From positions 267,821-331,820 of the forward strand of contig JABGXB010000003.1 in the NCBI GenBank assembly GCA_018675975.1: 64,000 nt of DNA, given 5' to 3'. Numbering within the stretch: position 1 is the first letter of the stretch; the number at the start of each line of letters is the position of its first letter. This DNA comes from Candidatus Woesearchaeota archaeon (GTDB lineage: Archaea; Nanobdellota; Nanobdellia; Woesearchaeales; JABGXB01). This document shows, in pieces, positions 1 to 54,375 of this stretch. Position numbers and translations under genes: made by a program. The notes under the pieces were generated by a model. That model was not told where the DNA came from and searched no databases. It saw nothing but the letters and a program-made list of their open reading frames with translations.

Positions 1-117
1 AATTAAAAAAGAAATATTGACTTTAAAAATAATTATATTCTTAAAACTAAATTAATAGAATTATTTGATTTTTAAAATATAAAAAAAACTTATAAATTCC
101 ACACTAAATCAACAAAT

Positions 118-345
118 ATGATTACAATAGAAGAAATTAAAAATAAATTAGAAAACAGTATGCCTAATGCAATAATTGAAATAAGTAACCCACAAGAAGA
201 TGGAAGACATTTTTTTGCAAAAATAATATGGGATGAATTTGAAAACAAAACATTAGTTGAGCAACATCAATTTGTTTATGAAATTTTAAAAGAAGAAATG
301 AAAGAACAAATACACGCATTAGGATTGGACACTAAATCAAAATAA
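118..345 (+). CDS. BolA-like protein
   Basis: 75 aa with BolA-like size and composition. It lies immediately upstream of a CGFS monothiol glutaredoxin, which is the classic BolA-Grx pairing. Confidence 0.55.
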   Translation: MITIEEIKNKLENSMPNAIIEISNPQEDGRHFFAKIIWDEFENKTLVEQHQFVYEILKEEMKEQIHALGLDTKSK

Positions 346-357
346 AAGGTTAAAAAA

Positions 358-666
358 ATGGATGAACAAGTTAAAACAAAAATTGAAGAATTAATTAAAT
401 CTAAAAAAGTATTTTTATTTATGAAAGGAACACCTGAAGAACCAGACTGTGGATTTTCAGCAAGAGTAATAGAAGTATTAAATCATTTTAATATAGAGTA
501 TTTAAGTTTTGATATATTAGAAAATGAAGAAATTAGACAAGGAATAAAAGAATATTCAAATTGGCCAACAATCCCACAATTATACATTGATGGAAAGTTT
601 GTAGGCGGTTGTGATATTATTGAAGAAATGGCAAGAAGTGGAGAATTATCTAAACTATTAAATTAA
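358..666 (+). CDS. monothiol glutaredoxin (CGFS type, Grx4/GrxD family)
   Basis: Active-site motif PDCGFSARV; glutaredoxin fold signature WPTIPQLYIDGKFVGGCDI. Confidence 0.8.
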   Translation: MDEQVKTKIEELIKSKKVFLFMKGTPEEPDCGFSARVIEVLNHFNIEYLSFDILENEEIRQGIKEYSNWPTIPQLYIDGKFVGGCDIIEEMARSGELSKLLN

Positions 667-715
667 TATTTTAAAGTCAATAAATCTTTATAATTAAATT
701 ATGTCTTAATTTCAT

Positions 716-1189
716 ATGGATATTCTTTGGAAAAACTTATTTAAAAAAAGAAACAATAATTCAATTAGTACAATTATAAAAAATGTCGATTTATTTAATG
801 AATTATCAAAAAAACAAATAAAAGAAATAATTAATTTAGGTCATGTTAGAAACTATAAAGAAAATGAAATCATATTTAATAAAAATGAACAAAGTTTTGG
901 AATGTTTATCATATTAAAAGGTCAAGTTGAGATTTATATAAATAAAAATAATAAAAAACAAATAATTGACAATTATAAACAATCAGAATATTTTGGAGAA
1001 ATCTCATTAATTGATAAAAATATAAGAAAAGTAAATGCAATAGCAAAAAAAGAAACAAAATTGTTTTATGTTTTTGGAGAAGATTTTAAAGAACTATTAA
1101 ACAAAAATAAAGATATTTCAATATTATTCTATAAAAATCTTACAAAAAATTTAATTGAAAAATTAAATTATCTGGAAAAATTATTATGA
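716..1189 (+). CDS. cyclic-nucleotide-binding domain protein
   Basis: cNMP-binding pattern GMFIILKGQVEIY...YFGEISLID...IAKKETKLF. No HTH domain is attached. Confidence 0.55.
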   Translation: MDILWKNLFKKRNNNSISTIIKNVDLFNELSKKQIKEIINLGHVRNYKENEIIFNKNEQSFGMFIILKGQVEIYINKNNKKQIIDNYKQSEYFGEISLIDKNIRKVNAIAKKETKLFYVFGEDFKELLNKNKDISILFYKNLTKNLIEKLNYLEKLL

Positions 1190-2244
1190 ATCCTATAAAT
1201 TTAAATAAAAAAATATGGTTAAATTTATTTTTAATTTTAGTCTTTATAACAATATTAGGATATATTTTTTTTCAATTTATTTCAATATTTGGATATGTAT
1301 TAATAGGGGTAATATTAAGTTATATATTAAATCCAATTGTAAAAAAAGTTGAAGCATTAGGATTTTCTAAAAAACATGCATTTAGTATAATAATTACAAT
1401 AAGTTTAATATTCATAATTACTGCAATGACAATTGCAATTCCTTTAATAAATCAAGAAGTTAATTCTCTCTCTAATAAATGGCCAGAAATAAAATCCAAA
1501 ATTAATAATCAAATTCTAACTGAAAAAATAAATAATAAAAATGAATCTACATATTATTTTCCACTATTAAATATTGAAATTGCTAAAAGTAATATAGATG
1601 GATTTTTATTAGATTATTCTTCACAAATAAATATATTTGCAAAAAATTTAATTTCAGTAATATTTAAATTAATTTTAATAGTACCAATTGTAACATATTT
1701 TTTAATCATAAAAAGAAGAAAAATCAAAAAGAAAATATTTCAATTAATTCCAAATAAATATTTTGAAATTATTTTTGCAATGGTAAAAGAAATAAATAAA
1801 TCCATTGAAAATTATATTTCAGCAAAAATAATTCAAGCAGTTATAATTTCAGTTTCAGCTAGTATTGGTTTTATAATAATAAATTTAAATTTTCCAATAT
1901 TTTTAGGAATATTTGTAGGTCTTGCAAATATCATACCTTATATTGGACCATTAATTGGAGCTATACCAGCAATACTTATTGCATATTTATTTTTTGATAC
2001 AAAAATAATTATATTTGTCTTAATTTTATTATTAATCGTACAATTAATTGACAATTTTATAATTCAACCAATAATATTACCAAAATTAGTTAATGAACAT
2101 CCAATTGTAGTTATAGTTATTACATTAATTGGAGCAGAATTATTTGGCCCATTAGGGATGATTATGGCATTGCCAATTTTTATAATAATTAAAATAATAT
2201 TATTAAAAAGTTATATTGCTCTAGACTTCTTATATTCTAAATAA
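1186..2244 (+). CDS. AI-2E family transporter (UPF0118/PerM-like)
   Basis: Multi-TM protein with the characteristic IPYIGPLIGAIPAILIA segment. The start overlaps the upstream stop. Confidence 0.65.
   Translation: MNPINLNKKIWLNLFLILVFITILGYIFFQFISIFGYVLIGVILSYILNPIVKKVEALGFSKKHAFSIIITISLIFIITAMTIAIPLINQEVNSLSNKWPEIKSKINNQILTEKINNKNESTYYFPLLNIEIAKSNIDGFLLDYSSQINIFAKNLISVIFKLILIVPIVTYFLIIKRRKIKKKIFQLIPNKYFEIIFAMVKEINKSIENYISAKIIQAVIISVSASIGFIIINLNFPIFLGIFVGLANIIPYIGPLIGAIPAILIAYLFFDTKIIIFVLILLLIVQLIDNFIIQPIILPKLVNEHPIVVIVITLIGAELFGPLGMIMALPIFIIIKIILLKSYIALDFLYSK
2171..2244. repeat. copy 1 of ~74 bp direct repeat (3' end of AI-2E gene)
   Basis: Matches 2598-2671 with 5 substitutions, all synonymous in the AI-2E reading frame. 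Confidence 0.8.
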
Positions 2245-2303
2245 TAAATTAAAAGTACTTGATTAAATAAAAACTTATAAATAATTTAACAATTAATTTT
2301 TAT

Positions 2304-2582
2304 ATGGGAGATAAATGGTATAATTCAGGCATTTCAAATTATATAAGTCAAGGCGTAGCATATTCTTTAATATTTGGAACTCTAATATTAGGAGGCGGTT
2401 CTTGTTACAGACAAAATGTAATTGCAGAAGCCGAGGCTGAAAGAATTAAAAGTGGAAGTTATATTATCCGTCAGGGTGACTTTAATAAAAACGGTAAAAG
2501 AGAAGAATTTATTGAAATAAGAAATAAAAAGTTTTTCTCAATGATTGATGGAATAGATTTAGAATCAAAATTAAAAGAATAA
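2304..2582 (+). CDS. hypothetical small membrane protein
   Basis: 92 aa ORF with one N-terminal hydrophobic segment. It is flanked by the 74 bp direct repeats. Confidence 0.3.
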   Translation: MGDKWYNSGISNYISQGVAYSLIFGTLILGGGSCYRQNVIAEAEAERIKSGSYIIRQGDFNKNGKREEFIEIRNKKFFSMIDGIDLESKLKE

Positions 2583-2597
2583 AACTTTTAATTTTAC

Positions 2598-2671
2598 TGC
2601 CAATTTTTATAATAATTAAAATCATACTATTAAAAAGTTATATCGCCCTAGACTTCTTATATTCTAAATAA
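2598..2671. repeat. copy 2 of ~74 bp direct repeat
   Basis: Translates to LPIFIIIKIILLKSYIALDFLYSK*, identical to the C-terminus of the AI-2E protein. Confidence 0.8.
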
Positions 2672-2744
2672 AAAAATATTATTTTTTAATTGCTTCAAAA
2701 CTAATATCACATGGTTGTTCAAATCTATTAATTAAATAGGGATA

Positions 2745-3734
2745 CTATTCATCTAATGATTCAACATCAGAAATACGTTCAGTTTCTAAAAAAATACTAT
2801 GCTTATCTTTACCATATTTACCATAAAAACCTTTAGTATTTTTTATGAGTTCAAATGACATTGGGTCTGCATCATTTACTTTATTTTCCTTAAAAAACAC
2901 ATTTTTTTTATCTTTAGCAAAAAAACCACCCACAACTTGAAATGTTTCACTATCTGCTTCCGAAATTAAATTCGAATAACTATAAACATGATTTTTATCT
3001 TTTGCATACCCATATTCTAAAACTTCAAAAGTTTTTATATCTGCATTTGACAATATGTTATCATAATGATAAATTCCAAAATATTTTTTATTAAACCCTT
3101 CTGAAAGTTCAATACCAAAACTAAAATTTATATTTAAAAAATATATCACTATAAATAAAATAGTTAATCCAAAAATTATTTTTTTAATATTTTTTTCTTT
3201 AATTAAGATTTCACCTAGATTTTTGATAAAAAAAGATGATATTGCATTTGCAATTATAAATATAAGTAAAATAAAAATAGGTCCAAGAACAAGTATTATA
3301 GGTCCAAGAACAAACATTAAAGCACCAAGATTAATTAATGAAAGTTTAATTAATCTTTCAATTATCGTATTTTGAAAATAAATAGATAATATCATGGCCA
3401 TAATCATTATAAATAAAAAAAATATCATTACCCTAGAAAAAAATAATTTCAAAGATGTTTTGATTTTTTTTTTTTCATCAAAAGGAACATCTTGTAATCT
3501 ATATGCTTGGTATATACTAACAAAGATAATAATAAAAAATGCAATTCCAACAACTAAATTATGTAAACCCGCTTCATAAGGAGTTCCAAAAAAAGTCCCA
3601 TATAATAAATCAAAAAAAACAATAATAACTACAATTATTAATCCAACAATTAATCCTTGTGAAAAAATATTTAAATTTTTAAAATATATCAAATTAGAAT
3701 TTTTTTGTAATTTAGAATTATTAACTTGATCCAT
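2745..3734 (-). CDS. membrane protein with C-terminal DKNYY-type repeats
   Basis: N-terminal half is polytopic membrane. The C-terminus has three repeats (AKDKNHVYSYS...SEADSETFQVV, AKDKKNVFFKE...NDADPMSFELI, YGKDKHSIFLE) resembling DKNYY-family repeats. Confidence 0.45.
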   Translation of the reverse strand: MDQVNNSKLQKNSNLIYFKNLNIFSQGLIVGLIIVVIIVFFDLLYGTFFGTPYEAGLHNLVVGIAFFIIIFVSIYQAYRLQDVPFDEKKKIKTSLKLFFSRVMIFFLFIMIMAMILSIYFQNTIIERLIKLSLINLGALMFVLGPIILVLGPIFILLIFIIANAISSFFIKNLGEILIKEKNIKKIIFGLTILFIVIYFLNINFSFGIELSEGFNKKYFGIYHYDNILSNADIKTFEVLEYGYAKDKNHVYSYSNLISEADSETFQVVGGFFAKDKKNVFFKENKVNDADPMSFELIKNTKGFYGKYGKDKHSIFLETERISDVESLDE

Positions 3735-3923
3735 AATATTAAAAACTAAATTAGATTATATAAAGCTAATCAAAAAAAATAGAGTATCACCCACAATAAT
3801 TAATAAATGGTTATTTTTTTTATGAATTCTTTTTAATTTTTTATTATTAAATAAATTACTATAAAAAGAAATATTGTTGATAAAATAAACCCACAATTAA
3901 ATAATCTGTTTTACAAATATTAA

Positions 3924-4442
3924 TTATAAATTATTAATTGGAACCTCTAATATGATGAGTTCTAATTTTTTATTCTCCGGTTGAGAATTTTTTCTATTAA
4001 AATGTACTAGAGTTTTCTTATTCGTAGTTTCTCGAAATCCCATTTTTTTAAAATAATTTAATGAAACTTCATTCCTAGAAGAAATTTGCTCATATATAGC
4101 CTTTAAATTTGAATATTTATTTTTTAAGTCATTAACAATTAAATCAATTACTTTTTTAGAAATACCTTTGTTTTGGTGTTCTGGTAATAAGCCATGAAAT
4201 CTAATCCCTGCGTTTTCAGTATCATCGATTTTAAACAAATAGTAACCCGTTATACCTATTACCTCGTGATTGTCTCTAATAAAATAATTCATACCATTTT
4301 TTTCTTTTATCCAAGTATCAAAAGATGCCTCAATATCTACATAATATTCTGGCTCAAAAATTTGTTTTGCTACATCCATATATTTATGTCTATTGCCAGA
4401 ATTAATCTCCTCGATATTAATTTTCATAATCTTATAATTCAA
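3924..4442 (-). CDS. GNAT-family N-acetyltransferase
   Basis: GNAT-like core (HGLLPEHQNKGISKKVIDLIVN...NEVSLNYFKKMGFRE). Confidence 0.5.
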   Translation of the reverse strand: MNYKIMKINIEEINSGNRHKYMDVAKQIFEPEYYVDIEASFDTWIKEKNGMNYFIRDNHEVIGITGYYLFKIDDTENAGIRFHGLLPEHQNKGISKKVIDLIVNDLKNKYSNLKAIYEQISSRNEVSLNYFKKMGFRETTNKKTLVHFNRKNSQPENKKLELIILEVPINNL

Positions 4443-4588
4443 TATATTCTTATAAACATTAGCATAAATAAATAGACCTTCATTTATTGCTTTTTCTCCT
4501 TTTTAGAATTTAAATTTATCTATTATCTAAAACGAAAAATAAATAATTCTTGAAAAGCCTTATAAATAATAAGTAAACTATAGTTAAC

Positions 4589-4969
4589 ATGGAGCTATTA
4601 TTACCACAAGAAGTAGAAGTACATTATATTATTCCAACTATTAGAAAATATTTTGCACATTATTTAAATCAAAATGGAATGAACCAAACTGAAATTTCTA
4701 AAATTTTTGGAATTACAAAATCTGCAGTATCACAATATTTTAGTAAAAAACGTGGAAATAAAATTACATTTCAAAAAGATTTTGTAAAAGAAATAGAAAT
4801 TGCAACAAAACAAATCACAGATAAATATACTTTTATGTATCAAATGCAAAAATTATTATTAAAATTGAAAAATGATTATTCAATTTGTACAATTCATGAA
4901 CAAATTAATCCAAATTTAAATAATTGTAATCCAGAATTGGTTGGATGCCACTTTAGAAAAACAAAATGA
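4589..4969 (+). CDS. HTH-domain transcriptional regulator (possible suf regulator)
   Basis: Helix-turn-helix segment TEISKIFGITKSAVSQYFSKKRG. It overlaps the sufB start, so it is co-transcribed. Confidence 0.4.
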   Translation: MELLLPQEVEVHYIIPTIRKYFAHYLNQNGMNQTEISKIFGITKSAVSQYFSKKRGNKITFQKDFVKEIEIATKQITDKYTFMYQMQKLLLKLKNDYSICTIHEQINPNLNNCNPELVGCHFRKTK

Positions 4970-6360
4970 GTAAATTAGATTTTGAACCGAATAGAGAAGT
5001 TTATGATAAAAAAGTAAATTTCAAAAAGAATATTGAAACTTCACCTGGACTAAGTGAAGATATTGTTAGATTAATCTCTAAACAAAAAGAAGAACCTGAA
5101 TGGATGTTAAAAAAAAGATTAGAAGCATTAGAATTATTTGAAAAAACAGAATTACCAAAATGGGGACCGAGTTTAGATATTCTAGATTTTGATCAAATTA
5201 AATTTTATGTTGATCCTAATACAAAAGAAACAAATTCTTGGGATGAAGTACCAGATGAAATAAAAGAAACATTTGAAAGATTAGGAATACCAGAAGCAGA
5301 AAGAAAAGGTTTAGCTGGAGTTGGTGCACAATTTGATAGTTCAATGGTTTATCATAATTTAGAAAAAGCATTAAAAGATAAAGGTGTGATTTTTGAAAAT
5401 ATGGATGTTGCAGTAAAAAAATATCCTGAATTAGTAAAAAAATATTTTATGAAACAATGTATTCCAATAAATGATCATAAGTTTATTATGTTACATGCAG
5501 CAGTATGGTCTGGTGGAACTTTTATTTATGTTCCAGAAAATACAAAAGTGGAATTACCATTACAAGCATATTTTAGAATGAATGAAATTATGGGTGGACA
5601 ATTTGAACATACTTTAATTATTTTAGAAAAAAATGCAGAATTACATTATATTGAAGGATGTAGTTCACCAAAATATTCAAAACAATCATTACATGCAGGT
5701 TGTGTTGAAATAATTGTAAATGAAGGAGCAAAGATGCGTTATTCATCAATAGAGAATTGGTCAAAAAATGTATACAACCTAAACACAAAAAGAGCAATTG
5801 TACATAAAAATGCAAAAATTAATTGGGTTAATGGAAATATGGGAAGTTGTAAAACAATGTTATACCCATGTAGTATATTAATTGGAGAAGGGGCAAGTTC
5901 AGATAATTTAGGAATTGCTTTCGCTGGTAAAAATCAAGATCAAGATACGGGAAGCAAAGTTATTCATGCTGCTAAAAATACAAGTTCTACAATAAAAGCA
6001 AAAAGTATTAGTAATTTTGGAGGAATTTCAAGTTATAGAGGACTAGTTGAAGTTAATAAAAATGCAATTAATACTAAAAGTAGTGTAGAGTGTGATGCGT
6101 TAATTATAGATGATAAATCAAGTTCAAACACATACCCGTTTATGAAAATTAATAATAATAAAATAAATATTTCTCACGAAGCAAGTGTTGGTAAAATAGG
6201 CGATGAACAAATTTATTATTTAATGTCAAGAGGATTATCTAAAGAACAAGCAATTCAATTAATTGTTGGTGGATTTATTGAACCGATTAGTAAACAATTA
6301 CCATTAGAATATGCAATTGAATTAAATAAATTAATTGAATTAGAAATTGAAGGTATGTAA
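4966..6360 (+). CDS. sufB: Fe-S cluster assembly protein SufB
   Basis: 464 aa; conserved SufB blocks (HYIEGCSSP, GKIGDEQIYYLMSRGL). Confidence 0.85.
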   Translation: MSKLDFEPNREVYDKKVNFKKNIETSPGLSEDIVRLISKQKEEPEWMLKKRLEALELFEKTELPKWGPSLDILDFDQIKFYVDPNTKETNSWDEVPDEIKETFERLGIPEAERKGLAGVGAQFDSSMVYHNLEKALKDKGVIFENMDVAVKKYPELVKKYFMKQCIPINDHKFIMLHAAVWSGGTFIYVPENTKVELPLQAYFRMNEIMGGQFEHTLIILEKNAELHYIEGCSSPKYSKQSLHAGCVEIIVNEGAKMRYSSIENWSKNVYNLNTKRAIVHKNAKINWVNGNMGSCKTMLYPCSILIGEGASSDNLGIAFAGKNQDQDTGSKVIHAAKNTSSTIKAKSISNFGGISSYRGLVEVNKNAINTKSSVECDALIIDDKSSSNTYPFMKINNNKINISHEASVGKIGDEQIYYLMSRGLSKEQAIQLIVGGFIEPISKQLPLEYAIELNKLIELEIEGM

Positions 6361-7473
6361 ATGAAAGTAGATCAAATTAAATTAAATGCAGAAAATTATT
6401 ATAATAGCACTAAATTTGAAACTATAAAATATGGAATAGGAATTAATGTAAATTTAAATAAATTAAATATTGATAAATTAAAATTCAATAATAGTAAAAA
6501 TAAAATAGATATAATTGCAAATAAAAGTGTTAAAATAATAGATTTTTCTAAATTAAAAACAGAAATAAATTATATTAATAAATTAATAAAAGAAGATGAA
6601 AATAAAATAATCTCATTACATTTTTCTAGGTTTAATAGTGGAAAATTAATAATCATACCAAAAGACACAATCATAACTGAACCAATTATAATAAATTCTG
6701 ATTCACAAGATGAAACTGATTTATATAATATAATAATTATAGCCGAAGAATCTTCAAAAGCAAATATAATTGAAATATCAAAATCTAATAATAAAACTAA
6801 ATTAAAAAGTAATATAATACAAATATTTGCAAATAAAAATAGTAATATCAAATATAATTATATTAATTTAAATGATAAAAAAACTAATTGTTTTAATATA
6901 AAAAGATCAGAAATAAAAAAAGATGCAAATATTGATTTCTTAGACGTTAATTTAGGATCAAATTTTAATCAAAATAGTAATAAAACATATTTAAAAGAAA
7001 GTGGAGCAAATACAAATAATTATGCAATTTATTTTACAAATGAAAAACAAAATTATGATATTGATATAGAAAATATACATGATGGTTCAAATACTAATAG
7101 TAATATAATATCAAAAGCAATATTAGATGACGAATCCAAAATAATTTATAGAAGTAATATTAATGTAAATAAAAATTGTAAAAGATGTAATGGACATCAA
7201 AAAGAAAATACATTATTGATAAGTAAAGATTCAAAAATTGATGCAGTTCCTATGTTAGAAATAAATAATGAAGATGTTAATATTAGTCACGGTGTAACAA
7301 TTTCTGATATTGAAGAAGAAAAATTATATTATTTAAAATCTAGAGGATTAGATGAAGAACAATCTAAAGAAATAATTATTAGAGGATTTATTAATGAATT
7401 AATTGACAAAATTGAAGATAAAAACATTTTACAATTAGTTGAAAAAGAAATAAATAAAAAATTAAAAAAATGA
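6361..7473 (+). CDS. sufD: Fe-S cluster assembly protein SufD (highly divergent, N/K-rich)
   Basis: SufB/D-type C-terminus (DAVPMLEINNEDVNISHGVTISDIEEEKLYYLKSRGL). Sits between sufB and sufS. Confidence 0.6.
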   Translation: MKVDQIKLNAENYYNSTKFETIKYGIGINVNLNKLNIDKLKFNNSKNKIDIIANKSVKIIDFSKLKTEINYINKLIKEDENKIISLHFSRFNSGKLIIIPKDTIITEPIIINSDSQDETDLYNIIIIAEESSKANIIEISKSNNKTKLKSNIIQIFANKNSNIKYNYINLNDKKTNCFNIKRSEIKKDANIDFLDVNLGSNFNQNSNKTYLKESGANTNNYAIYFTNEKQNYDIDIENIHDGSNTNSNIISKAILDDESKIIYRSNINVNKNCKRCNGHQKENTLLISKDSKIDAVPMLEINNEDVNISHGVTISDIEEEKLYYLKSRGLDEEQSKEIIIRGFINELIDKIEDKNILQLVEKEINKKLKK

Positions 7474-8663
7474 ATGAAAAAGATTTTCCAATATTAAAAA
7501 GAAAAATAAATGGACATAATTTGGTTTATTTAGATAATGCTGCAACTACACAAAAACCAAATCAAGTAATCGATAGTCAAATTGATTATTATAAAAATTA
7601 TAATTCAAATGTACATAGAGGAATACATCAGTTAAGTGAAGAATCAAGTAAAATGTATCATGATGCAAGACAGACAACGGCAGATTTTATTAATGCTAAA
7701 TTTAATGAAGTAGTTTTTACTGCTGGAACAACTGATGGAATAAATATGATTGCTAATAGTTTAAAATCACAATTAAAAAAAGGTGATGAAATCATTTTGA
7801 GCGAAATGGAACATCATTCCAATATTGCTCCTTGGATTAAAATTGCAAAAAAAAAAAAATTAATATTAAAATATATTCCATTAAAAGATTTTGAACTAGA
7901 TTATAAAAAAGCTAAAGATCTAATAAGCGAAAAAACAAAAATAATTGCAATTTCACATATATCAAATGTATTAGGTACTATAAACGATATATCAAAAATA
8001 AAAACAATGATAAAAAATAAAAATATTATTTTTATTTTAGATGCAGCACAAAGTGTTCCACATATAAAAATTGATGTGAAAAAATTAGATATAGATTTTT
8101 TGGTATTTTCTTCACATAAAATGTGCGGACCTACAGGTATTGGAGTTCTTTATGGAAAAGAAGAATTATTAGATAAATTAGAACCAAATCAATATGGTGG
8201 TGGTGCAGTTGAAATAGTAAATAAAGATAATTTTACTTTAACAGAATCACCATTTAAATTTGAAGCTGGAACTCCAAAAATTGCACAAGCCATTGGATTT
8301 GCAAGTGCTATTAAATATTTAAATCACATTGGAATGGATAAAATTGAAAAATATGAACATGAATTATATGAATATGCACATAAGAAAATAAAAGAAATTA
8401 AAAATATTACATTATATGCACCTAAAAAAAATAGAAGTTGTTTAATTTCATTCTCAATTAAAAACATTCACCCTCATGATATTAGTGAAATATTAAATCA
8501 AAAAGGTATTGCAGTTAGAAGTGGTAATCATTGTGCACAGCCATTAACACAAGCAATCAATGTTAATAATACAACAAGAGCATCATTTTATTTTTATAAT
8601 AATAAAAATGATGTAGACAAATTAATTGAAGGAATTAATTATGCAATAAAAATATTGAGTTAA
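7470..8663 (+). CDS. sufS: cysteine desulfurase SufS (class V aminotransferase)
   Basis: PLP-lysine region SSHKMCGPTGIGVLYG; C-terminal RSGNHCAQ. Confidence 0.8.
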   Translation: MNEKDFPILKRKINGHNLVYLDNAATTQKPNQVIDSQIDYYKNYNSNVHRGIHQLSEESSKMYHDARQTTADFINAKFNEVVFTAGTTDGINMIANSLKSQLKKGDEIILSEMEHHSNIAPWIKIAKKKKLILKYIPLKDFELDYKKAKDLISEKTKIIAISHISNVLGTINDISKIKTMIKNKNIIFILDAAQSVPHIKIDVKKLDIDFLVFSSHKMCGPTGIGVLYGKEELLDKLEPNQYGGGAVEIVNKDNFTLTESPFKFEAGTPKIAQAIGFASAIKYLNHIGMDKIEKYEHELYEYAHKKIKEIKNITLYAPKKNRSCLISFSIKNIHPHDISEILNQKGIAVRSGNHCAQPLTQAINVNNTTRASFYFYNNKNDVDKLIEGINYAIKILS

Positions 8664-8664
8664 A

Positions 8665-9414
8665 ATGGATTTAGAAATTAAAAATTTATGTGTAGAAGTA
8701 GAAGGAAAAGAAGTATTAAAAAATATTAATATGAAGTTTGAAAAAGGTAAAACTTATGCTATCATGGGACCTAATGGAAGTGGTAAAAGTAGTTTAGCAA
8801 ATACTATTTGTGCAAACCCAAAATACAAAATTACTAAAGGGAAAATTATTTTAAATGGAAAAGACATTACAAAAACAACCCCGGATAAAAGAGCAAGATT
8901 AGGTTTATTTTTATCTTTTCAATATCCTGAAGAAATACCTGGAGCAAGCCTTACAAATTTTTTAAGAATGGCATATAATAATTTACATGAAGAAAAATTA
9001 AATCCAATGAAATTTTTAAAATTATTAAAAGAAAAAATGGCTGAATTAAAAATGGCAGATACATTTAGAAGAAGGTATTTAAATCAAGGTTTTAGTGGGG
9101 GAGAAAAAAAAAGATGTGAAATTTTACAATTAAGTATATTAGAACCAAAATTTGCAATTTTAGATGAAATTGATAGTGGATTAGATGTAGATGCTCTAAA
9201 AATAGTTTGTGATATGATAAATAAAATTAGAAATAACAAAAAAGAAATGACAACTACTCTTATTACACATTATAATAAAATATTACAATATATACATCCA
9301 GATAAAATTTATATTTTATATAATGGAAAAATAATAAAGGAAGGTCAAAAAGAATTAGCCATTGAAATTGAAAATAATGGTTTTGAAAATATAATAAAAG
9401 AAAATGATAAGTAA
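8665..9414 (+). CDS. sufC: Fe-S cluster assembly ATPase SufC
   Basis: Walker A GPNGSGKSS, ABC signature FSGGEKKR, Walker B ILDEIDSGLD. Confidence 0.85.
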   Translation: MDLEIKNLCVEVEGKEVLKNINMKFEKGKTYAIMGPNGSGKSSLANTICANPKYKITKGKIILNGKDITKTTPDKRARLGLFLSFQYPEEIPGASLTNFLRMAYNNLHEEKLNPMKFLKLLKEKMAELKMADTFRRRYLNQGFSGGEKKRCEILQLSILEPKFAILDEIDSGLDVDALKIVCDMINKIRNNKKEMTTTLITHYNKILQYIHPDKIYILYNGKIIKEGQKELAIEIENNGFENIIKENDK

Positions 9415-9694
9415 AAAAGAATTAATTGAAATTTTTGAAGATGTAATTGATCCAGAAATAAATATTGATATATGGACTATGGGATTAATTTATGATTATA
9501 AAATAGAAAAAGATAGAGTATGGATTAAAATGACCTTTACTACACCAACGTGTCCATTTGGTCCAGAATTAATTGAAGAAATTAAATCTAAAGTATTAAA
9601 CAAAGGATTAGAATTTTGTGATATTGATATAACTTTTGAACCACCTTGGAAACCAAGTGAAGATTTAAAAGAAATGTTAGGTATTGTAGATTAG
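9404..9694 (+). CDS. sufT: DUF59/MIP18-family Fe-S assembly protein (SufT-like)
   Basis: 96 aa; DUF59 pattern VIDPEINIDIWTMGLIY...TTPTCPFGP. Confidence 0.6.
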   Translation: MISKKELIEIFEDVIDPEINIDIWTMGLIYDYKIEKDRVWIKMTFTTPTCPFGPELIEEIKSKVLNKGLEFCDIDITFEPPWKPSEDLKEMLGIVD

Positions 9695-9696
9695 AC

Positions 9697-9712
9697 AAAT
9701 GTAGTGGTTAAA
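9697..9712. repeat. 16 bp direct repeat copy 1 (aaatgtagtggttaaa)
   Basis: Exact second copy at 9760-9775. A related gttggttaaatc motif lies between them. Confidence 0.6.
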
Positions 9713-9759
9713 TTTCAAATTTATGTTTAATTATTTAAACTGTCGTTGGTTAAATCAAT

Positions 9760-9775
9760 AAATGTAGTGGTTAAA
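9760..9775. repeat. 16 bp direct repeat copy 2
   Basis: Identical to 9697-9712. Confidence 0.6.
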
Positions 9776-9873
9776 AATAAAATATATTTTTTATTAATGT
9801 AATTATCGTTAAATAAAGAAGTAAATATAGAAATTAAAAGAATATTTGAATCATCATAAATTTATATAATAAA

Positions 9874-9948
9874 TAGCGGAGGAAGGATTTGAACCTTCGA
9901 CCTTCGGGTTATGAGCCCGATGAGCACTCCAGACTGCTCCACCCCGCT
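9874..9948 (-). tRNA. initiator tRNA-Met (CAT), archaeal type
   Basis: Cloverleaf read by hand: acceptor AGCGGGG/CTCCGCT gives A1:U72; anticodon stem TCGGG/CCCGA has three G:C pairs next to loop CTCATAA. No CCA is encoded. Confidence 0.85.
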
Positions 9949-10148
9949 ATAATTCTCAGACTTATTAACTATTTATAAAGATTTCTTTGATATTATTTTT
10001 TTTCTATTAAATAATATTCATTCATATTAAAAGATTAAACTCCACACATAAAAAGATTTCAATAAAACAAAATAGAATTGAAAAGTTTTCAATTACATTG
10101 AAATGTTTTTTAACAAGTTTATTTTAAACTAAATGTGTATATGAATTT

Positions 10149-11102
10149 ATGAAAACAAAAAAAACTTTAACTAATTTAGTTTTATCAAGTTTAATTTCAC
10201 TAACGGCTTTTTCTTATAACCCAATGGATACTGGCTATATAGATAATTATAATTTTTATACAAAAAGTGATGCCAGAGAATATATTGTAAAAGAAGAAGC
10301 TGCACTATTAAAACATAGAGCTAAAACAACTAAGAATGAAAATTATAATTTAATTGCAGAAAAATTATTAGACAATATTGAATTAATGAGTAAACAAGCA
10401 TTTCGAGATTTTGAAAAAATACAATTACCTGGGGTACAAATAATTTTAAGTAGTAAAAATTTTGAATCTAGAGTTCAAAATGCATATTTAAAACTAAATG
10501 AAAATTTCCAATTAGATCCGGAATTAAATCAAGCAATAAATAATTTTAATACTTATGAAATAAAAAAATATATTGAAAATCAAAATTTATCAAAAAGAAA
10601 AGATTTAAATTCAGCACAATTAGAATTATTAAATAAATATTCAAAAACAATTAATTCATTTTTATCAGAAAATTATGAAACATTTTCACAAAAATCTTTA
10701 AGTTTACTTTCAAATTATGATTTTAATACACTTGAATTTAAACAATTTAATGATATTCAATATAATACAGTTGATTTAATGTATAAAAAATCAATTGGTG
10801 CATATAATGATACAATAGATAAATTATCTCAAAGCCCATTTGAATCAAAAATATTTAATCAAGTAATTGGTTTAAGTAATAGCATGTTCGGTTTTTTTAA
10901 TAAATTAGATAAAAAATATGGAGTAACAGATAATTTTAAATTTATAATAAATAAAATTGAAACTTATGTAAATGATCAAAATAAAAAAAGAAAAGAAAAA
11001 ATCCAATTAGAATTTATAGATGAAAAAGCACAGTATAATGGAGGAGATTTAAAATATAAATTTCATATCGATAGAGACTCTATATTTCAAAAAATGTTTT
11101 AG
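10149..11102 (+). CDS. hypothetical secreted protein
   Basis: N-terminal signal-like segment MKTKKTLTNLVLSSLISLTAFS. No recognisable domain. Confidence 0.4.
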   Translation: MKTKKTLTNLVLSSLISLTAFSYNPMDTGYIDNYNFYTKSDAREYIVKEEAALLKHRAKTTKNENYNLIAEKLLDNIELMSKQAFRDFEKIQLPGVQIILSSKNFESRVQNAYLKLNENFQLDPELNQAINNFNTYEIKKYIENQNLSKRKDLNSAQLELLNKYSKTINSFLSENYETFSQKSLSLLSNYDFNTLEFKQFNDIQYNTVDLMYKKSIGAYNDTIDKLSQSPFESKIFNQVIGLSNSMFGFFNKLDKKYGVTDNFKFIINKIETYVNDQNKKRKEKIQLEFIDEKAQYNGGDLKYKFHIDRDSIFQKMF

Positions 11103-11149
11103 CCATTAAATTTATAAAAGATTTGCCTACCTTAGTTGTATAAGTCTAA

Positions 11150-11232
11150 GCTGAGGTCGCATAGTCTGGTATTGCGCCGGATTGCTAATCCGGTTCCTTC
11201 GGGAAGCGTGGGTTCAAATCCCGCTCTCAGCG
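11150..11232 (+). tRNA. tRNA-Ser (GCT)
   Basis: Acceptor GCTGAGG/TCTCAGC with discriminator G; anticodon loop TTGCTAA; long variable arm TTCC-TTCG-GGAA; T-loop TTCAAAT. Confidence 0.8.
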
Positions 11233-11356
11233 TTTTTTATTTATTTTATTATAGTCATCTATACTAAAAAAATCCAAATATATATTATGGATTTGAACTA
11301 AAAGTTCACTTTCAAATGCTCTGCATTTGAAAGGTCGAAAATAAATATTTTCAGAC

Positions 11357-11374
11357 AATCCCGCTCTCAGCGTT
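11357..11374 (+). repeat. 18 bp exact duplicate of tRNA-Ser(GCT) 3' end (aatcccgctctcagcgtt)
   Basis: Identical to 11217-11234. It is preceded by a degenerate T-loop-like ttcagacaatcc. Confidence 0.7.
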
Positions 11375-11422
11375 CTTTTTTTAATAATAATATTTTATAA
11401 ATTAACAAATCATAAAAATAAT

Positions 11423-11695
11423 ATGAGAACTTCTTTATATAAAAATGCAATTGAATGTTCAAATGCTCTTGATGAAAAATTAAAAGAATTTGAATTAAAA
11501 TTAATAAATCCTAAAGATCATTTTGGAAGAGATTTAACTTCTTTTGAAAAAGGAAAATTAGCATATATAAGTCACCTTCCTAATCAAGAATTAAATATAT
11601 TAAATATGGGTCCTCCAAAAAAATTTTATGAAAGATTCAAATATAATTTAGGACAATTATTTGCATCTTTTGTAGATTCATATAATATAGATTAA
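11423..11695 (+). CDS. hypothetical protein
   Basis: 90 aa ORF, no recognisable motif. Confidence 0.3.
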   Translation: MRTSLYKNAIECSNALDEKLKEFELKLINPKDHFGRDLTSFEKGKLAYISHLPNQELNILNMGPPKKFYERFKYNLGQLFASFVDSYNID

Positions 11696-11711
11696 AATTC
11701 TACAATATTTT

Positions 11712-13850
11712 TTAAAGATTTTTTTTATTATTATATTCTTTAATTTTACGAGACTGTTCTAAAAGAGTTTCTTCTTTTTCTTTTAATTTAAAATCAACAA
11801 AAGCAGATTTAAAATCCCTAACTAAATATTTATCATCTTTTGAATCAATATTATATTTAGAAATAATCATTTGTGATTGAGGCAAACCAATTTTATATGC
11901 TCTAGATAATTGTTGTTGAGTTAAATATGTTTCTTGAGAATTTATTTCTTTTATTCTTTCAATAATTTTATCTCTTTGTTCCCAATATTTATCTATAAAT
12001 TTTGCAGGATTAAAAAGAGGATCTGACATACCATTTAAAGGAATTAATGCACCCTCATAAGTAACTGCTTTTTTTGCTTTTTCTTCCTTTTTTTTACCAT
12101 GAACATCAATTACGGAATAAAATTCCTTTTCAGTTAAAATTGTATTTAATTCATCTTGATTATCTAAAATAAATTGTCCATATTCAGTAAGTGCATTTTT
12201 AATAGATTCTTGAGTTCCACCAGTAAATTTTGTTAATACAAGACCCGTATATCTTTGACCTTGTCTATATTTTTTTTGTCCTTCTAAAACCGTAAAAAAA
12301 CTAGACCAATTTAATGTTCCAAAATAAGTTTGAAGTACTAATAAATGTGTTTTCGAATGTGGCTCTTTTAAAAAATCCAAATAATCTTTATCAGTCAATA
12401 CATATTCATTACTATTAATTTCTTTATTTTCAGATTCAATTTCTTTTTGAGTAGCACCATCAAGAACAATTGCAGCTAAATCTTTGATTCCATTTTCAAT
12501 ATTATTATCTACAACTTCATCTGAAATAATAGAAACTAAACCTTTCTTTTTATTTTCTGATTCTACTTTATCTTTTAAAAATTGTTTTTGTCCATCTAAA
12601 ATTTTATCTCTATCATACCAAAAATAATCCATAAAATCTTTCAATACGTATTGTTCATTTTCATCAGGTTTAATATCAATACTTTCAAATATTCTATGAA
12701 ATTCTTTTCTTGTAATAGTGCTTTTCATCAGTAATATTGTTTTTAAATCTTCTTTTAAATAAGAATTATTTAATTGATCGTTATTTGTTTCATAAAAATT
12801 ATCTCTATTTTCTATGGAACTTAAAATTGCTTTTTCCTTTCCAACTAAATCAAAACATTCTCGTAAAGAAACACCAAAGTAATTTCCATCTTTTTTAAAT
12901 AAATTATCTAAATCAAAAGATTTAGTAAATTGTAATCTATCTTTATCTAAAATTTGATTATAAATTGCAAATAAAGTATACTTATTATGAGTTTGCTTAT
13001 AAAATTCATCTAATTTTTCAGATTCAAAAGTATTCTTTTCTAATGATTCAATAATAGCATGTCTTTTATCCCAATGATAATCAATAAAACCATGTAATGT
13101 AAAAACTCTTTGTTCGTATTCATCTTTAAAAATTTCTGACGAAATACTTTGAAAATGACTTTTAAAATTTCTTTCTGTAATATTAATTGCATCCATTACT
13201 ATTTTTCGAACATATCTTCGAGTTAATTTTTTACTTAAAACAGTTTCATATTCTTTTAAAAAAGTGTCTCTTCTTTCAATTGCTGCTTCAACATCTTTTT
13301 TCTTACCAGTTAAATCTCTATGTTTAAACAATAAACTTCCTAAATAATCACCCTCTTTATTTTTTTTCCCAAATCTAATTAATGGAGTAAAACTTGAAAT
13401 AGGTTTATCTGTAACTTCATTAAAAATTGCATATAATTCGTGTTTTGGATGATAAGTATTAAAAAATGTTTTTTCTTCTTCTTTTGGACTCTCTTTAACA
13501 ACTTCAGATTTTACATCCTTACTTTCGACTAAAGTCTCTAAAGCAATAGGAGCTTCAACAATAGGAATTTGAACAACAGGCTTAGATTTAATTTTTCTTT
13601 TCTCTTTTTTAACTTTGTCTTCAGTTTCAATATCTTTTTTTACATCATCTATATTTCTACTACTTGCCCTTAATAAAAAAGTCTCTAATGAAATTTTTGA
13701 TTGAGTTTCAACACTATCTTTTTCAACTGGTGTTTCTTTTCCCATTGTTTTATTTACAAAAAGAGTAAACGGACTGATTTCATTAGACTCGATCATTACT
13801 ATTGAGTTAAAAATAACAATTATAAACATTATACCAAATAAAAGATACAT
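11712..13850 (-). CDS. hypothetical membrane-anchored protein with three internal repeats
   Basis: N-terminal TM. Three copies of a ~14-residue motif h-D-Y-x-W-x-x-R-D-K-I-h-E (IDYHWDKRHAIIE, MDYFWYDRDKILD, IDKYWEQRDKIIE), about 150-200 aa apart. Confidence 0.4.
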   Translation of the reverse strand: MYLLFGIMFIIVIFNSIVMIESNEISPFTLFVNKTMGKETPVEKDSVETQSKISLETFLLRASSRNIDDVKKDIETEDKVKKEKRKIKSKPVVQIPIVEAPIALETLVESKDVKSEVVKESPKEEEKTFFNTYHPKHELYAIFNEVTDKPISSFTPLIRFGKKNKEGDYLGSLLFKHRDLTGKKKDVEAAIERRDTFLKEYETVLSKKLTRRYVRKIVMDAINITERNFKSHFQSISSEIFKDEYEQRVFTLHGFIDYHWDKRHAIIESLEKNTFESEKLDEFYKQTHNKYTLFAIYNQILDKDRLQFTKSFDLDNLFKKDGNYFGVSLRECFDLVGKEKAILSSIENRDNFYETNNDQLNNSYLKEDLKTILLMKSTITRKEFHRIFESIDIKPDENEQYVLKDFMDYFWYDRDKILDGQKQFLKDKVESENKKKGLVSIISDEVVDNNIENGIKDLAAIVLDGATQKEIESENKEINSNEYVLTDKDYLDFLKEPHSKTHLLVLQTYFGTLNWSSFFTVLEGQKKYRQGQRYTGLVLTKFTGGTQESIKNALTEYGQFILDNQDELNTILTEKEFYSVIDVHGKKKEEKAKKAVTYEGALIPLNGMSDPLFNPAKFIDKYWEQRDKIIERIKEINSQETYLTQQQLSRAYKIGLPQSQMIISKYNIDSKDDKYLVRDFKSAFVDFKLKEKEETLLEQSRKIKEYNNKKNL

Positions 13851-33604: not shown

Positions 33605-36600
33605 ATGGAACAAAGTATTGAAACAAAACGAACTGGTATAAAAGTTAAAAAAGTTTTTTGTAGTGATAATATAAGCCCATTTGAAACTGTTGAATTTGAA
33701 AACAGATCAAGTGTGATAAAAAATAGAGATGGTTCTATATTATTTGAAATAAATAATATTCATGCTCCAAAAAAATGGTCGCAAGTTGCCGTAGATATAA
33801 TGGCACAAAAATATTTTAGAAAAAGTGGAGTTCCACAATATGATGAAAATCAAAATGAAATTAAAGATGAATTTTCAAATATAATTACAGGTTCAGAAAC
33901 AGATATTACTCAACCAATAAAAAGATTAACTGGATGTTGGAGACATTGGGGAGAAAAATATAATTATTTTGATACGCAACAAGATGCAATTAATTTTGAA
34001 CAAGAAATACAATATATGTTATTACATCAAATCGCTGCACCAAATAGTCCACAATGGTTTAATACGGGACTTAAATGGGCATATAATATTTCTGGAAGTG
34101 CACAAGGACATTATTATGCTGAACATGAAACAGGTGAAATTAAATTATCTGAGGATGCATATTCAAGACCTCAACCGCATGCATGTGCGGATTATTATAC
34201 ACAAGTGTATACTGATAAGGGTACAATGTATATTGGAGATATAGTTGAAAATAATTTAACTAATATAAAAGTATTTGATGGAGAAAAATATGTAAAAGTT
34301 CTTGCAATCAAAAACAATGGAAAAAAAGAAGTGTTTAAAATTCAATTAAAAAATGGAAATTATATTAAATTAACTCAAGATCATTTAGTGCTATCATCAC
34401 AAAAAAGAAAAAAAAATGGTGGAAATTATAACTGGAATTATGTAAAAGATGTAAAATTAGGTCACAAATTACAACAACCATTAATTCTAGATATTAAAGA
34501 AAAAAATGTATTTAGTGATGATTTAGCAAAAGCAAGATTAGCCGGTTGGATAGTTGGAGACGGATCAGTTGGAATTTATGAAAATGTAATGAGATTGGAA
34601 ATTATTTCTATTAAAGAAGAAGAATTTGAATCAATAATAAATGATATTCAAGAAGTATTTGGACAAGAAGTTAATTTTTGGATTAGTAAATTTAAAACAA
34701 AAAACGAAAATTTAGATGGTAAAAGAATTCATTTAGCAGGTAAAAAAATACATAAATTAATTGAAGACTATGATTTACTAAAATCTTCATTTAATGCAGA
34801 AGTACCTCAAAAAATAATTAATGGGTCACCACAAGAAAAAAGAGAATTTTTAAAAGCCTTATTTCAAGCAGATGGTTGTGTCAGAATTAGAAAAGATGAA
34901 AATAGAAATTCAGGAGATGTGTGTTTAACTACAATTTCAGAAAATCTTTCATTTGGAGTTTTACAATTATTAAATTCATTAGGTATTTATTGTAGAATTA
35001 ATAAATATAGTGATAAAAGAGAAAATCGAAAAGATGTTAATCAAGTTATAGTATCTTATGGTAGTGCAAGAGAACAATTTCAAGAACAAATTTCTTTTAT
35101 ATGTTCTCAAAAAACCGAAAAATTAGAATTATTAAATAAAATTATAACAAAATCAAAAACACTTCCATTAATAAGAGAAGAAACAATTATTTCAATTGAA
35201 TCTGAAGGCATTAAAGATGTTTATGATATTCAAACAGAATCTTCAAAATTTCTTGGAAATGGAATTGTAATACATAATTGTTTTATTCAATCAGTTAAAG
35301 ATGATTTAGTTAATCAAGGTGGAATATTTGACCTTTGTACAAGAGAGGCAAGAATATTTAAATATGGTTCTGGAACTGGTTCAAATTTTTCACAATTAAG
35401 AGGTCAGTCTGAAAAATTATCAGGTGGTGGAAGATCTTCAGGTATGATGTCATTTTTAAAAATATTTGATGTGGCAGCTGGAGCAATTAAATCAGGTGGT
35501 ACAACAAGACGTGCAGCAAAAATGGTTTGTCTTGATTTGGATCATCCAGAAATTATTGAATTTATTGATTGGAAAGCAAATGAAGAAAAAAAAGTTGCTA
35601 ATTTAATTACTGGTTCAAAAAATTCAAAATATCATTTACAAAAAATATTAAAAGAAGCAAGTTCAAATTCAAATATAGAAAAAAATCCAAAATTAAAATC
35701 AGCAATTAAAGAAGCTATTGAACAAAATATTTCTTTAAATTATATTGATAGAGTTTTAAAACTTGCAAATCAAGGAATAACTGAATTTGAAACTCCCGAG
35801 TTTGATAATCATTTTGAAGGTGAAGCATATTCTACAGTTAGTGGACAAAATTCAAATAATTCAATAAGAATACCAAATTCATTTTATGAAGCTGTTCATA
35901 AAGACTTAGATTGGAATTTAAAAAATAGAACTGATGGAAAAATTTCAAAAACTGTAAGAGCAAAATGGCTTTATGATAAAATTGGACAAGCTGCTTGGGC
36001 TTGTGCAGATCCTGGTGTTCAATTTGATACGACAATTAATGAATGGCATACATGTCCAAAAGATGGAAGAATTAATGCAAGTAATCCTTGTTCTGAATAT
36101 ATGTTTTTAGATGATACTGCATGTAATTTAGCTAGTATTAATTTAATTCATTTTATTAATGATAGTGGACATTTTAATGAAGAAAAATTTGCTCATGCAT
36201 GTGAACTTATGACAATTGTTTTGGAAATTTCAGTTACTATGGCTCAATTTCCAAGTGATGAAATTGCAAAAAGAAGTTGGGAATATAGAACATTAGGTTT
36301 AGGTTTTGCAAATTTAGGGACATTACTCATGGTTAAAGGAATTTCTTATGATAGTGATGAAGCTAGAAGTATAGCTGGAGGAATTAGTGCCATAATGTGT
36401 GGAACTGCTTATGAAACATCTGCTAAACTCGCAAAACATCTAGGACCTTTTAACAGATATGAACATAATAAAGATGACATGTTAAGAGTTATTAGAAATC
36501 ATAGACGTGCTGCATATAATGTTTCAAATGAAGAGTATGAAAAATTAGAAATTACTCCAGTTGGCATTGATGAAAATTTATGTCCAAATAATATTTTACA

Positions 36601-53706: not shown

Positions 53707-54375
53707 TTGACTAAAATTATGTTAGAAGAATTTAATGATCAAATACCGTTTTATAATTATTTAGATATAATAAAAGAATATTATGATAATGATTTTGAAA
53801 AAGAATTTGTAAATAAAAAATCTAAAGAATTAAATAAATTATATGGAACTAAAAAAATTGAATTACCTTTAAATTTAATTAAGCAAAATAAACTTTATAT
53901 TTTTCAAAATAGTAATTTAGAATTAATATTTTTAGAATTATTAAAAAATCATTTAAACAAAGTAAAAATTGTAGTTGAAATTAATAAACAAGAAATTGCA
54001 TATTTACAAGGATTTTTATCTAATTATTCTATTGAAAAAATATGTAAAATATTATCATTTGGAGATGAACTACAATATTCAAGAGTATTAGATTTAGCAA
54101 AATATGGACATTTCCCTCAAATTAATTTAGTTATTGATTTAGATTATTCAAAAGTAGTAGATTTTTTTAAAATAATAAATTTACTATATTTATTAGGTGC
54201 AAATACATCTTTTGGTTTTTACGAGGATAAAAAGAAAATTGCTATTATAGACTACTCTTATACATTAATATTTAATACAGATTTTTTTAATAAAAATATT
54301 TTAAATAAAGTAATTAATAATATAAAAAATAAAATACCAAAATTTCCAATAAATTTATTTGGACATGAAGAATAA
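53707..54375 (+). CDS. hypothetical protein
   Basis: 222 aa, no motif. Overlaps the next ORF. Confidence 0.3.
   Translation: MTKIMLEEFNDQIPFYNYLDIIKEYYDNDFEKEFVNKKSKELNKLYGTKKIELPLNLIKQNKLYIFQNSNLELIFLELLKNHLNKVKIVVEINKQEIAYLQGFLSNYSIEKICKILSFGDELQYSRVLDLAKYGHFPQINLVIDLDYSKVVDFFKIINLLYLLGANTSFGFYEDKKKIAIIDYSYTLIFNTDFFNKNILNKVINNIKNKIPKFPINLFGHEE

Follow-up and report, generated by a model that had tools for sequence, protein, structure and literature searches.

The DNA analysed here is a stretch of 64,000 nucleotides (nt) from a Candidatus Woesearchaeota archaeon (contig JABGXB010000003.1, positions 267,821 to 331,820), referred to below as the window, and the feature under study is the 3' end of a gene for an AI-2E/PerM-family transporter, which stands there twice, on either side of a short insert that carries one small membrane-protein gene. 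The transporter gene (AI-2E; 1186-2244, plus strand) is intact and codes for 352 amino acids (aa), with Pfam family PF01594 matching residues 16-339 at an E value of 1e-57; together with a tail motif, KSYxALDxxYS, that is conserved in the relatives P0003-P0010, this coverage marks it as full length. Its last 24 sense codons and TAA stop, termed copy 1 (2170-2244, plus strand), are the end in use and have host-like codon usage. They recur downstream as copy 2 (2597-2671, plus strand), an untranslated and foreign-looking stretch without a start codon, whose frame is open only from 2549. Between the copies lies an insert of 352 nt (2245-2596, plus strand), one complete small transcription unit with a 92-aa open reading frame (ORF), ORF92 (2304-2582, plus strand), and without counterpart downstream of AI-2E in the relatives examined. 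A run of six T (2682-2687, plus strand) begins 11 nt past the stop of copy 2, while after the stop of copy 1 no T-run is met until 2294-2298; the six-T tract is probably the original oligo-T terminator of AI-2E, which would now serve an AI-2E-ORF92 unit. The window has a GC content of 23.4% and encodes GatD/GatE, CDC48, Spt5, NMD3, FtsZ and an AMP-phosphorylase-like protein, and is therefore archaeal; the host is a DPANN archaeon (Woesearchaeota) with a very AT-rich genome of about 1 Mb. The locus is a genuine scar of recombination; it varies a type already known and is no new system.

A preliminary description of this DNA had reported that the gene end recurs downstream of its own stop codon and that the two copies differ only by five silent changes. 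Both claims hold, with the boundaries shifted by one base to give copies of 75 nt each and an insert of 2245-2596. The copies form a direct repeat pair with a spacing of 427 nt, in codon register, identical at 70 of 75 positions (93%) and free of indels, their longest identical run being 25 nt. The differences fall at 2170, 2196, 2200, 2217 and 2220 (copy 1 coordinates), where the codon pairs in copy 1/copy 2 are TTG/CTG, ATA/ATC, TTA/CTA, ATT/ATC and GCT/GCC; all five are synonymous, and the translation of either copy is LPIFIIIKIILLKSYIALDFLYSK followed by the stop. Each difference runs in the same direction, with T or A in copy 1 and C in copy 2, and the alleles are not mixed into a mosaic. 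The pair is the sole strong direct repeat in the 64-kb window, and no third, decayed copy of the kind that would be a sign of a tandem element array was found at the DNA or peptide level.

In a Nei-Gojobori comparison of copy 1 with copy 2 (15.3 synonymous sites, S, and 56.7 non-synonymous sites, N), the proportion of synonymous differences (pS) was 0.33, the synonymous distance (dS) was 0.43 and the non-synonymous distance (dN) was 0, and the synonymous-only pattern gave a Fisher P of 2e-4. Five silent changes out of five would arise with a probability of 4e-4 if substitutions were uniform, and of 2-3e-3 given four transitions and one transversion. Conservation of the C-terminal motif KSYxALDxxYS accounts for purifying selection acting on the repeated part. 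The combination of dN = 0 with a dS of about 0.43 bears out the earlier proposal that both copies were once the ends of functional genes, and it supports a history in which the copies would have diverged while each ended a working gene. The same combination leads us to reject a local duplication, by long target-site duplication or slippage, followed by neutral drift, and a horizontal or recombinational origin is therefore required. Close spacing and high identity would be expected of such a local event. However, at 0.33 changes per synonymous site a dead copy should have accumulated about 20 further changes, whereas no non-synonymous change and no indel is present, and all differences point towards rare C-ending codons, contrary to AT mutation pressure.

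An assembly artefact, for which the close spacing and high identity would also speak, is excluded as well. The preliminary description had named such an artefact as a possible refutation, but the two-copy arrangement proved base-identical in at least eight independent assemblies from different assemblers. Contigs from JGI, NCBI (GCA_018673795.1), ENA (with SPAdes- and MEGAHIT-style names) and Logan encode a protein identical to ORF92; each readable locus holds both copies with the same five differences, at 99.99-100% identity to the window over up to 12.6 kb, and one further JGI contig has the same two-copy arrangement. That an assembler was misled by the repeat is also unlikely because the longest identical run between the copies is too short. 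A single contig of low coverage (L001; 2.5x) carries a change from AGT to ACT (Ser to Thr) at 2637 in copy 2. Nothing else hints at unconstrained drift in copy 2, and the change could stem from a sequencing error.

Codon usage was used to judge which of the two copies is native, with 26 long ORFs of the window and the body of the AI-2E gene as reference. At the five differing sites the codons of copy 2 are rare in the 26 ORFs (CTG 0.2% of Leu, CTA 4%, ATC 3.4% of Ile, occurring twice, and GCC 4.7% of Ala), while four of the five in copy 1 are common (TTA 78%, ATT 65%, ATA 32% and GCT 31%), the exception being TTG with 7% of Leu. Counts in the AI-2E gene body were 0/39 for CTG, 2/39 for CTA, 4/78 for ATC and 0/16 for GCC, and TTG was also absent (0/39). 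The GC content of third codon positions (GC3) is 0.12 in copy 1 and 0.24 in copy 2, the latter to be set against 0.067 in the AI-2E body and 0.084 in the long ORFs (range 0.05-0.125; P = 0.005-0.015 against the host). In ORF92 it is 0.161 (P = 0.01 against the genome mean of 0.084). Because a dead native copy would drift towards A/T and not towards C, we conclude from these codons that copy 1 is in all likelihood the host's own gene end. Copy 2, we conclude in the same way, would derive from the orthologous gene in a lineage of somewhat higher GC content. Protein-level selection would have acted on it there, and its arrival would be recent, with no decay yet. With GC3 high in copy 2 and ORF92 and low in the AI-2E body and in the next gene to the right, which encodes a DKNYY-domain protein, a foreign tract may therefore be placed at about 2245-2647.

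This polarity bears on a second proposal of the preliminary description, that an integrated element carried a replacement gene end into the locus. A known example is E. coli icd with icdC (e14 / phage 21), where the 3' end of the gene occurs twice as direct repeats around an insert, the differences are mainly synonymous or conservative, and recombination between the repeats restores a working gene (PMC13626634). Applied to the archaeal locus, the element would comprise copy 1 and 2245-2596, perhaps what deletions left of a prophage or integrative element; it would have given AI-2E its in-use end, and copy 2 would be the displaced native end. The geometry does match that of icd/icdC, in that the 3' end of a protein gene is doubled as direct repeats with synonymous-only differences flanking inserted DNA (PMC13626634); the six-T tract after copy 2 looks like the original terminator, and the L001 variant places a non-synonymous change in copy 2. 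However, the native end would then have to consist of codons used at 0.2-4.7% and near-absent from the gene body, which is unlikely (GC3 P = 0.005; likelihood ratio about 1e5-1e6), and no integrase was found in the scanned ORFs. By contrast with e14, a 15-kb prophage with its own integrase that supplies the in-use end, the insert here measures 352 nt and holds a single cargo gene but no integrase, and the end in use appears native. We therefore regard an integration of the e14/icd type as quite improbable, and the proposal of an element-borne replacement end is not sustained, since codon usage makes the in-use copy native and the downstream copy foreign.

The insert itself is bounded by inverted repeats. 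The left one, AAATTAAAAGT (2246-2256), lies 1 nt past the stop of copy 1 and pairs perfectly with 2584-2594, a segment that stops 2 nt short of copy 2; terminal inverted repeats (TIRs) of at least 11 nt within 3 nt of both ends occur at a frequency of 1.1e-4 among random 352-nt placements in the window. Such termini could point to a non-autonomous transposon resembling a miniature inverted-repeat transposable element (MITE), spanning 2246-2594 and inserted after the stop codon, with the 75-nt repeat unrelated to it. The perfect 11-bp TIRs at the insert ends (P about 1e-4) are what such an element predicts. However, the flanks, T and TA, are not a short target-site duplication, and the 64-kb window contains no further copy between TIRs; elsewhere in it the 11-mers occur only unpaired and inside ORFs. 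The 75-nt repeat would moreover be left unexplained, and MITEs are not normally carriers of a complete conserved gene. This candidate was set aside as very unlikely.

Within the insert, a TATA-like box, TTATAAAT (2275-2282, plus strand), can be read from the sequence about 26 nt before the ATG of ORF92, and the 9-mer ACTTATAAA stands at the same distance upstream of an ORF92 homolog in contig L022; in DNA this AT-rich, the box may be a promoter giving a leaderless mRNA. A hairpin with an 11-bp stem and a 7-nt loop (2567-2595, plus strand) spans the ORF92 stop, and its descending arm is the right TIR. Its minimum free energy is -6.4 kcal/mol (z = -3.1), and 1 of 200 shuffles folds as well.

ORF92 encodes a small protein, predicted to be membrane-anchored, with a single FG-GAP-like DxNxNGxxE loop that matches the FG-GAP repeats of giant surface proteins. 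We reject the view that it is a spurious or orphan ORF, as HMMER finds a real family of 84-112-aa homologs that align with it end to end at 33-48% identity. The family shares a layout of an N-terminal (D/E)KWYNS motif, one transmembrane helix and a C-terminal DLNxNGxxEEF...F..IDGxxLE module. No Pfam or PHROG family was matched, a word-indexed protein search returned only ORF92 itself, and the homologs surfaced only with the full HMMER search. By sequence similarity, ORF92 defines an unannotated family of 84-112-aa archaeal membrane-anchored proteins (P0069-P0088). Its AlphaFold2 (AF2) model has a predicted local distance difference test (pLDDT) score of 69 overall and of 80-91 in a small beta domain, with no PDB fold match at E < 0.9. 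The homologs lie on archaeal contigs of about 32% GC in unrelated contexts (glycosyltransferases and Fic; HD and S6e genes), and ORF92 is therefore cargo and not a fixed neighbour of AI-2E. No relevant direct repeats surround the ORF92 homolog in L022.

Two side observations were made around ORF92. The 11-mer ATTCTAAATAA ends both repeat copies, occurs nowhere else in the window and is found once in the 12.3-kb L022 locus (6280-6302), right after the stop of the ORF92 homolog and followed by an A-run and TAT, as after copy 2; this sharing may be chance or reflect a shared 3' element and was not used as evidence. In addition, the frame of copy 2 (2549-2671) has no stop over the 16 codons upstream, where it runs into the end of ORF92 in the -1 register. 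A fusion of ORF92 with copy 2 by -1 frameshifting was considered and set aside, there being no slippery heptamer and the open stretch being within chance length.

Taken together, we tentatively favour an insertion-duplication of the Campbell type, made recently by a single crossover at the very 3' end of AI-2E, a reading in which our confidence falls a little short of even. Under this model, a small foreign DNA would have entered the cell, either as a circle of about 427 bp or as what is now the surviving stub of a larger integrative element. It would have carried one complete small gene (TATA-like box, ORF92 and 3' hairpin) together with a 75-bp copy of a gene end, the last 24 codons and stop of the AI-2E ortholog in a relative somewhat richer in GC. 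A crossover with the chromosome would then have taken place inside the last ~24 identical bases, which overlap the stop codon. Copy 1 would remain as the host gene's own end; behind it would come the cargo gene and, next, copy 2, which abuts the region of the original oligo-T terminator. The synonymous-only differences would reflect evolution of the foreign copy in a working gene of another lineage, with too little time for decay since its arrival.

The position of the crossover is suggested by the differences themselves. The interval right of the last difference (2221-2244 in copy 1, with 2648-2671 as its counterpart in copy 2, plus strand) is 24 nt long and identical between the copies, and because the absence of a mosaic and these 24 identical nt fit one crossover at the 3' edge, we place the event there. 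A crossover right of the last difference would leave all foreign alleles in copy 2, the host gene undamaged and the terminator after copy 2, as observed. The insert is exactly one gene unit, and the 11-bp inverted repeats lie 1-2 nt inside the repeat boundaries, which argues for the same model. A single crossover with a circle carrying cargo and gene end is the simplest single event that gives the observed order. The earlier suggestion that a small cassette was inserted by recombination with a diverged allele comes close to it. Three parts of the model are our inference: that the intermediate was a circle, where the crossover fell, and what carried it out, whether host homologous recombination or an integrase supplied in trans. 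Identical runs of 24-25 nt are short for host homologous recombination.

Several points weigh against the single-crossover model. For an autonomous entity, a circle of 427 bp would be very small. Taken alone, the lack of differences over the final 24 nt does not reach significance (P = 0.19, from synonymous-site counts). Chance recurrence of an arm of the ORF92 hairpin behind the AI-2E stop might account for the inverted repeats. Five sites and one 92-codon ORF carry the whole codon-usage argument, and the GC3 of ORF92 is only marginally atypical against the upper host range (P = 0.18). The sampled population is essentially clonal and supplies neither presence/absence polymorphism nor an outgroup for polarity. 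Machinery for mobility was also missing from what was searched. ORF92 is the sole ORF in the insert, which holds no integrase or recombinase, and no recombinase domain was found among 33 of the 39 window ORFs of at least 200 aa (all except 6361-7473, 7470-8663, 8665-9414, 54359-55006, 56784-57479 and 61875-62942) and five shorter ORFs flanking the repeat. No empty site, circular junction or free element appeared in metagenome or viral collections. The empty site was predicted as …GGCA plus one 75-nt copy plus AAAAATATT…, and an exact empty-site pattern had 0 matches in metagenome contigs, the population sampled there being clonal. The circle junction was predicted as …ACTTTTAATTTTA plus 75 nt plus TAAATTAAAAGT…, and neither it nor the gene-end motif, ORF92 or the DNA had a match in IMG/VR, phage or plasmid collections, which hold few DPANN elements.

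The neighbourhood of the gene in relatives bears on a further explanation. AI-2E is preceded by its upstream partner, a cNMP-binding gene (716-1189), a pair conserved in all relatives examined, and the larger arrangement BolA-Grx-(X)-cNMP-binding-AI-2E is conserved in relatives as well. The nearest AI-2E homologs are only 48-49% identical, with no intermediate lineage among 5.8 billion proteins. In the closest relative (L008-L010; 48% aa identity), which has no insert and is too distant for base-level comparison, the AI-2E stop is followed after 78 nt by a homolog of the helix-turn-helix (HTH) gene at 4589-4969, part of the HTH-suf operon. The 2.3-kb block 2245-4588, with ORF92, copy 2, the DKNYY-domain gene and a GNAT acetyltransferase gene, is absent there. 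Because AI-2E adjoins the HTH gene in that relative, these four were therefore gained here or lost there, and the flank resembles a minor hot spot of gene acquisition. What follows AI-2E is different each time in more distant relatives. No duplicated AI-2E gene end was found in the relatives, none of those examined has ORF92 downstream of AI-2E, and a single-protein scan of GTDB genomes for related genomes returned nothing. A scan with a degenerate form of the C-terminal motif recovered only the same clone in metagenomes and two chance matches in genomes.

A variable flank of this sort would suit an origin of copy 2 as what is left of an AI-2E ortholog from elsewhere. A donor chromosomal fragment that started within the donor's AI-2E gene could have become attached by an illegitimate junction behind an ORF92 already in place, with homology further right as its anchor (homology-facilitated illegitimate recombination). 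Alternatively, a second, xenologous gene could have been acquired whole and later have lost all but its last 24 codons. A copy 2 that is foreign by codon usage and diverged under purifying selection is explained equally well in this way. The absence of 2245-4588 from the closest relative and the GC3 of the GNAT gene (P = 3e-7) point to repeated entry of foreign DNA into the flank, the stretch behind AI-2E varies in every relative, and the absence of any recombinase or free element from the searches fits too. However, the DKNYY-domain gene right of copy 2 is host-like (GC3 0.10), and the GC-richer tract does not obviously continue rightwards. Such an origin also needs two events or an arbitrary junction, does not predict perfect 11-bp inverted repeats at both insert ends, and has to accommodate an ORF92 that is itself mildly atypical in GC3. 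We consider it unlikely, though a serious competitor to the single-crossover model.

A bolder reading would make the 427-bp unit a minimal integrase-less mobile cassette of DPANN archaea, consisting of a promoter-bearing small gene and a 75-bp coding mimic of the host gene end. Its circle would be bracketed by the 11-bp inverted repeats and would insert at and excise from the AI-2E 3' end harmlessly, via host recombination or a recombinase in trans. The mimic would stay protein-neutral because crossovers anywhere inside it become part of the host gene. We hold such a cassette to be improbable.

Among known systems, the nearest concepts appear, by analogy, to be two. Cis-mobilizable elements (CIMEs) are integrase-less elements flanked by attachment sites (attL/attR) after the decay of an integrative and conjugative element, for example at the fda 3' end of Streptococcus thermophilus. 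The present locus resembles them in having att-like gene-3'-end repeats around a short cargo without a recombination module, which in principle would be mobilisable in trans; unlike it, CIMEs are bacterial and much larger, and no parental autonomous element with the same site was found for this lineage. Campbell-type insertion-duplication and homology-facilitated illegitimate recombination are known mainly from laboratory genetics and bacterial transformation. As in the Campbell type, a single homologous segment of incoming DNA would here be duplicated around heterologous DNA with no need for a dedicated integrase; we know of no natural case with 75-bp diverged homology described in a DPANN archaeon.

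Integrations into gene 3'-distal regions that leave attL/attR are known for tRNA genes generally. In archaea, integration into the 3'-distal parts of protein genes with att repeats is documented, and in Thaumarchaeota 14 of 68 integrated elements lie in 3'-distal regions of genes (PMC6563490). The Woesearchaeota locus shares with these an archaeal host, att-type direct repeats over the stop-codon region and possible re-use of the site. By contrast, those elements are kilobases long, have integrases or casposases and use short att sites (e.g. 13 bp), where the repeat here is 75 nt with five mismatches (PMC6563490). Judged as an integrative element, the locus has direct repeats over a gene 3' end, an integrase was not found, and, going by five sites, the in-use end was not supplied by an element. 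Two further classes were considered and rejected. For an integron gene cassette, no GTTRRRY core is present at either insert boundary, the 75-nt repeat is not an imperfect palindrome and no integrase was found; for a casposon, no Cas1 domain was found among the scanned window ORFs and the insert is only 352 nt long.

To our knowledge, little is understood of how genes move in DPANN archaea, and hardly any mobile elements have been described for Woesearchaeota. The locus offers a clear case, dated by its sequence, of the entry of foreign DNA into a genome of this kind, at the 3' end of a conserved membrane transporter gene that was left intact. It suggests that about 75 bp of coding homology can suffice for the delivery of one cargo gene, possibly without a dedicated integrase. 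Were the unit mobile, few known gene-carrying integrative cassettes would be as small; for now the scar is a modest, if useful, case study in recombination.

Beyond copy 2, the DKNYY-domain gene encodes a membrane protein (2745-3734, minus strand; Pfam) and the GNAT acetyltransferase gene follows at 3924-4442 (minus strand; Pfam; GC3 = 0.21). Four contigs of the closest relatives from three runs (L008, L009, L010 and L018) all stop exactly 123 nt into the HTH gene, which is likely due to two co-occurring strains (P0003, P0004) that share sequence there. The ENA scaffold L013 matches window positions 1-3042 at 99.6% and then continues with unrelated GC-richer sequence inside the DKNYY-domain gene (L013 3697-3941, window about 3042 onward), being either a chimeric contig or a structural variant. 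It also has one T fewer in a poly-T tract near the AI-2E start (window about 1261-1272), where the gene calls P0002 and P0094 have another N-terminus; this is either a homopolymer error or real length variation.

Elsewhere in the window, the only Rfam families in positions 1-12000 are tRNAs. A 317-aa ORF without Pfam family lies between tRNA-Met and tRNA-Ser. Just downstream of the tRNA-Met gene (9873-9949, minus strand) stands a tandem pair of 63-nt units that are 73% identical (9697-9822), with a weak, sub-threshold CRISPR-DR6 match nearby (10056-10084). Further right, a class II ribonucleotide reductase gene (33605-38146, 1513 aa) contains an intein with a LAGLIDADG homing-endonuclease domain.

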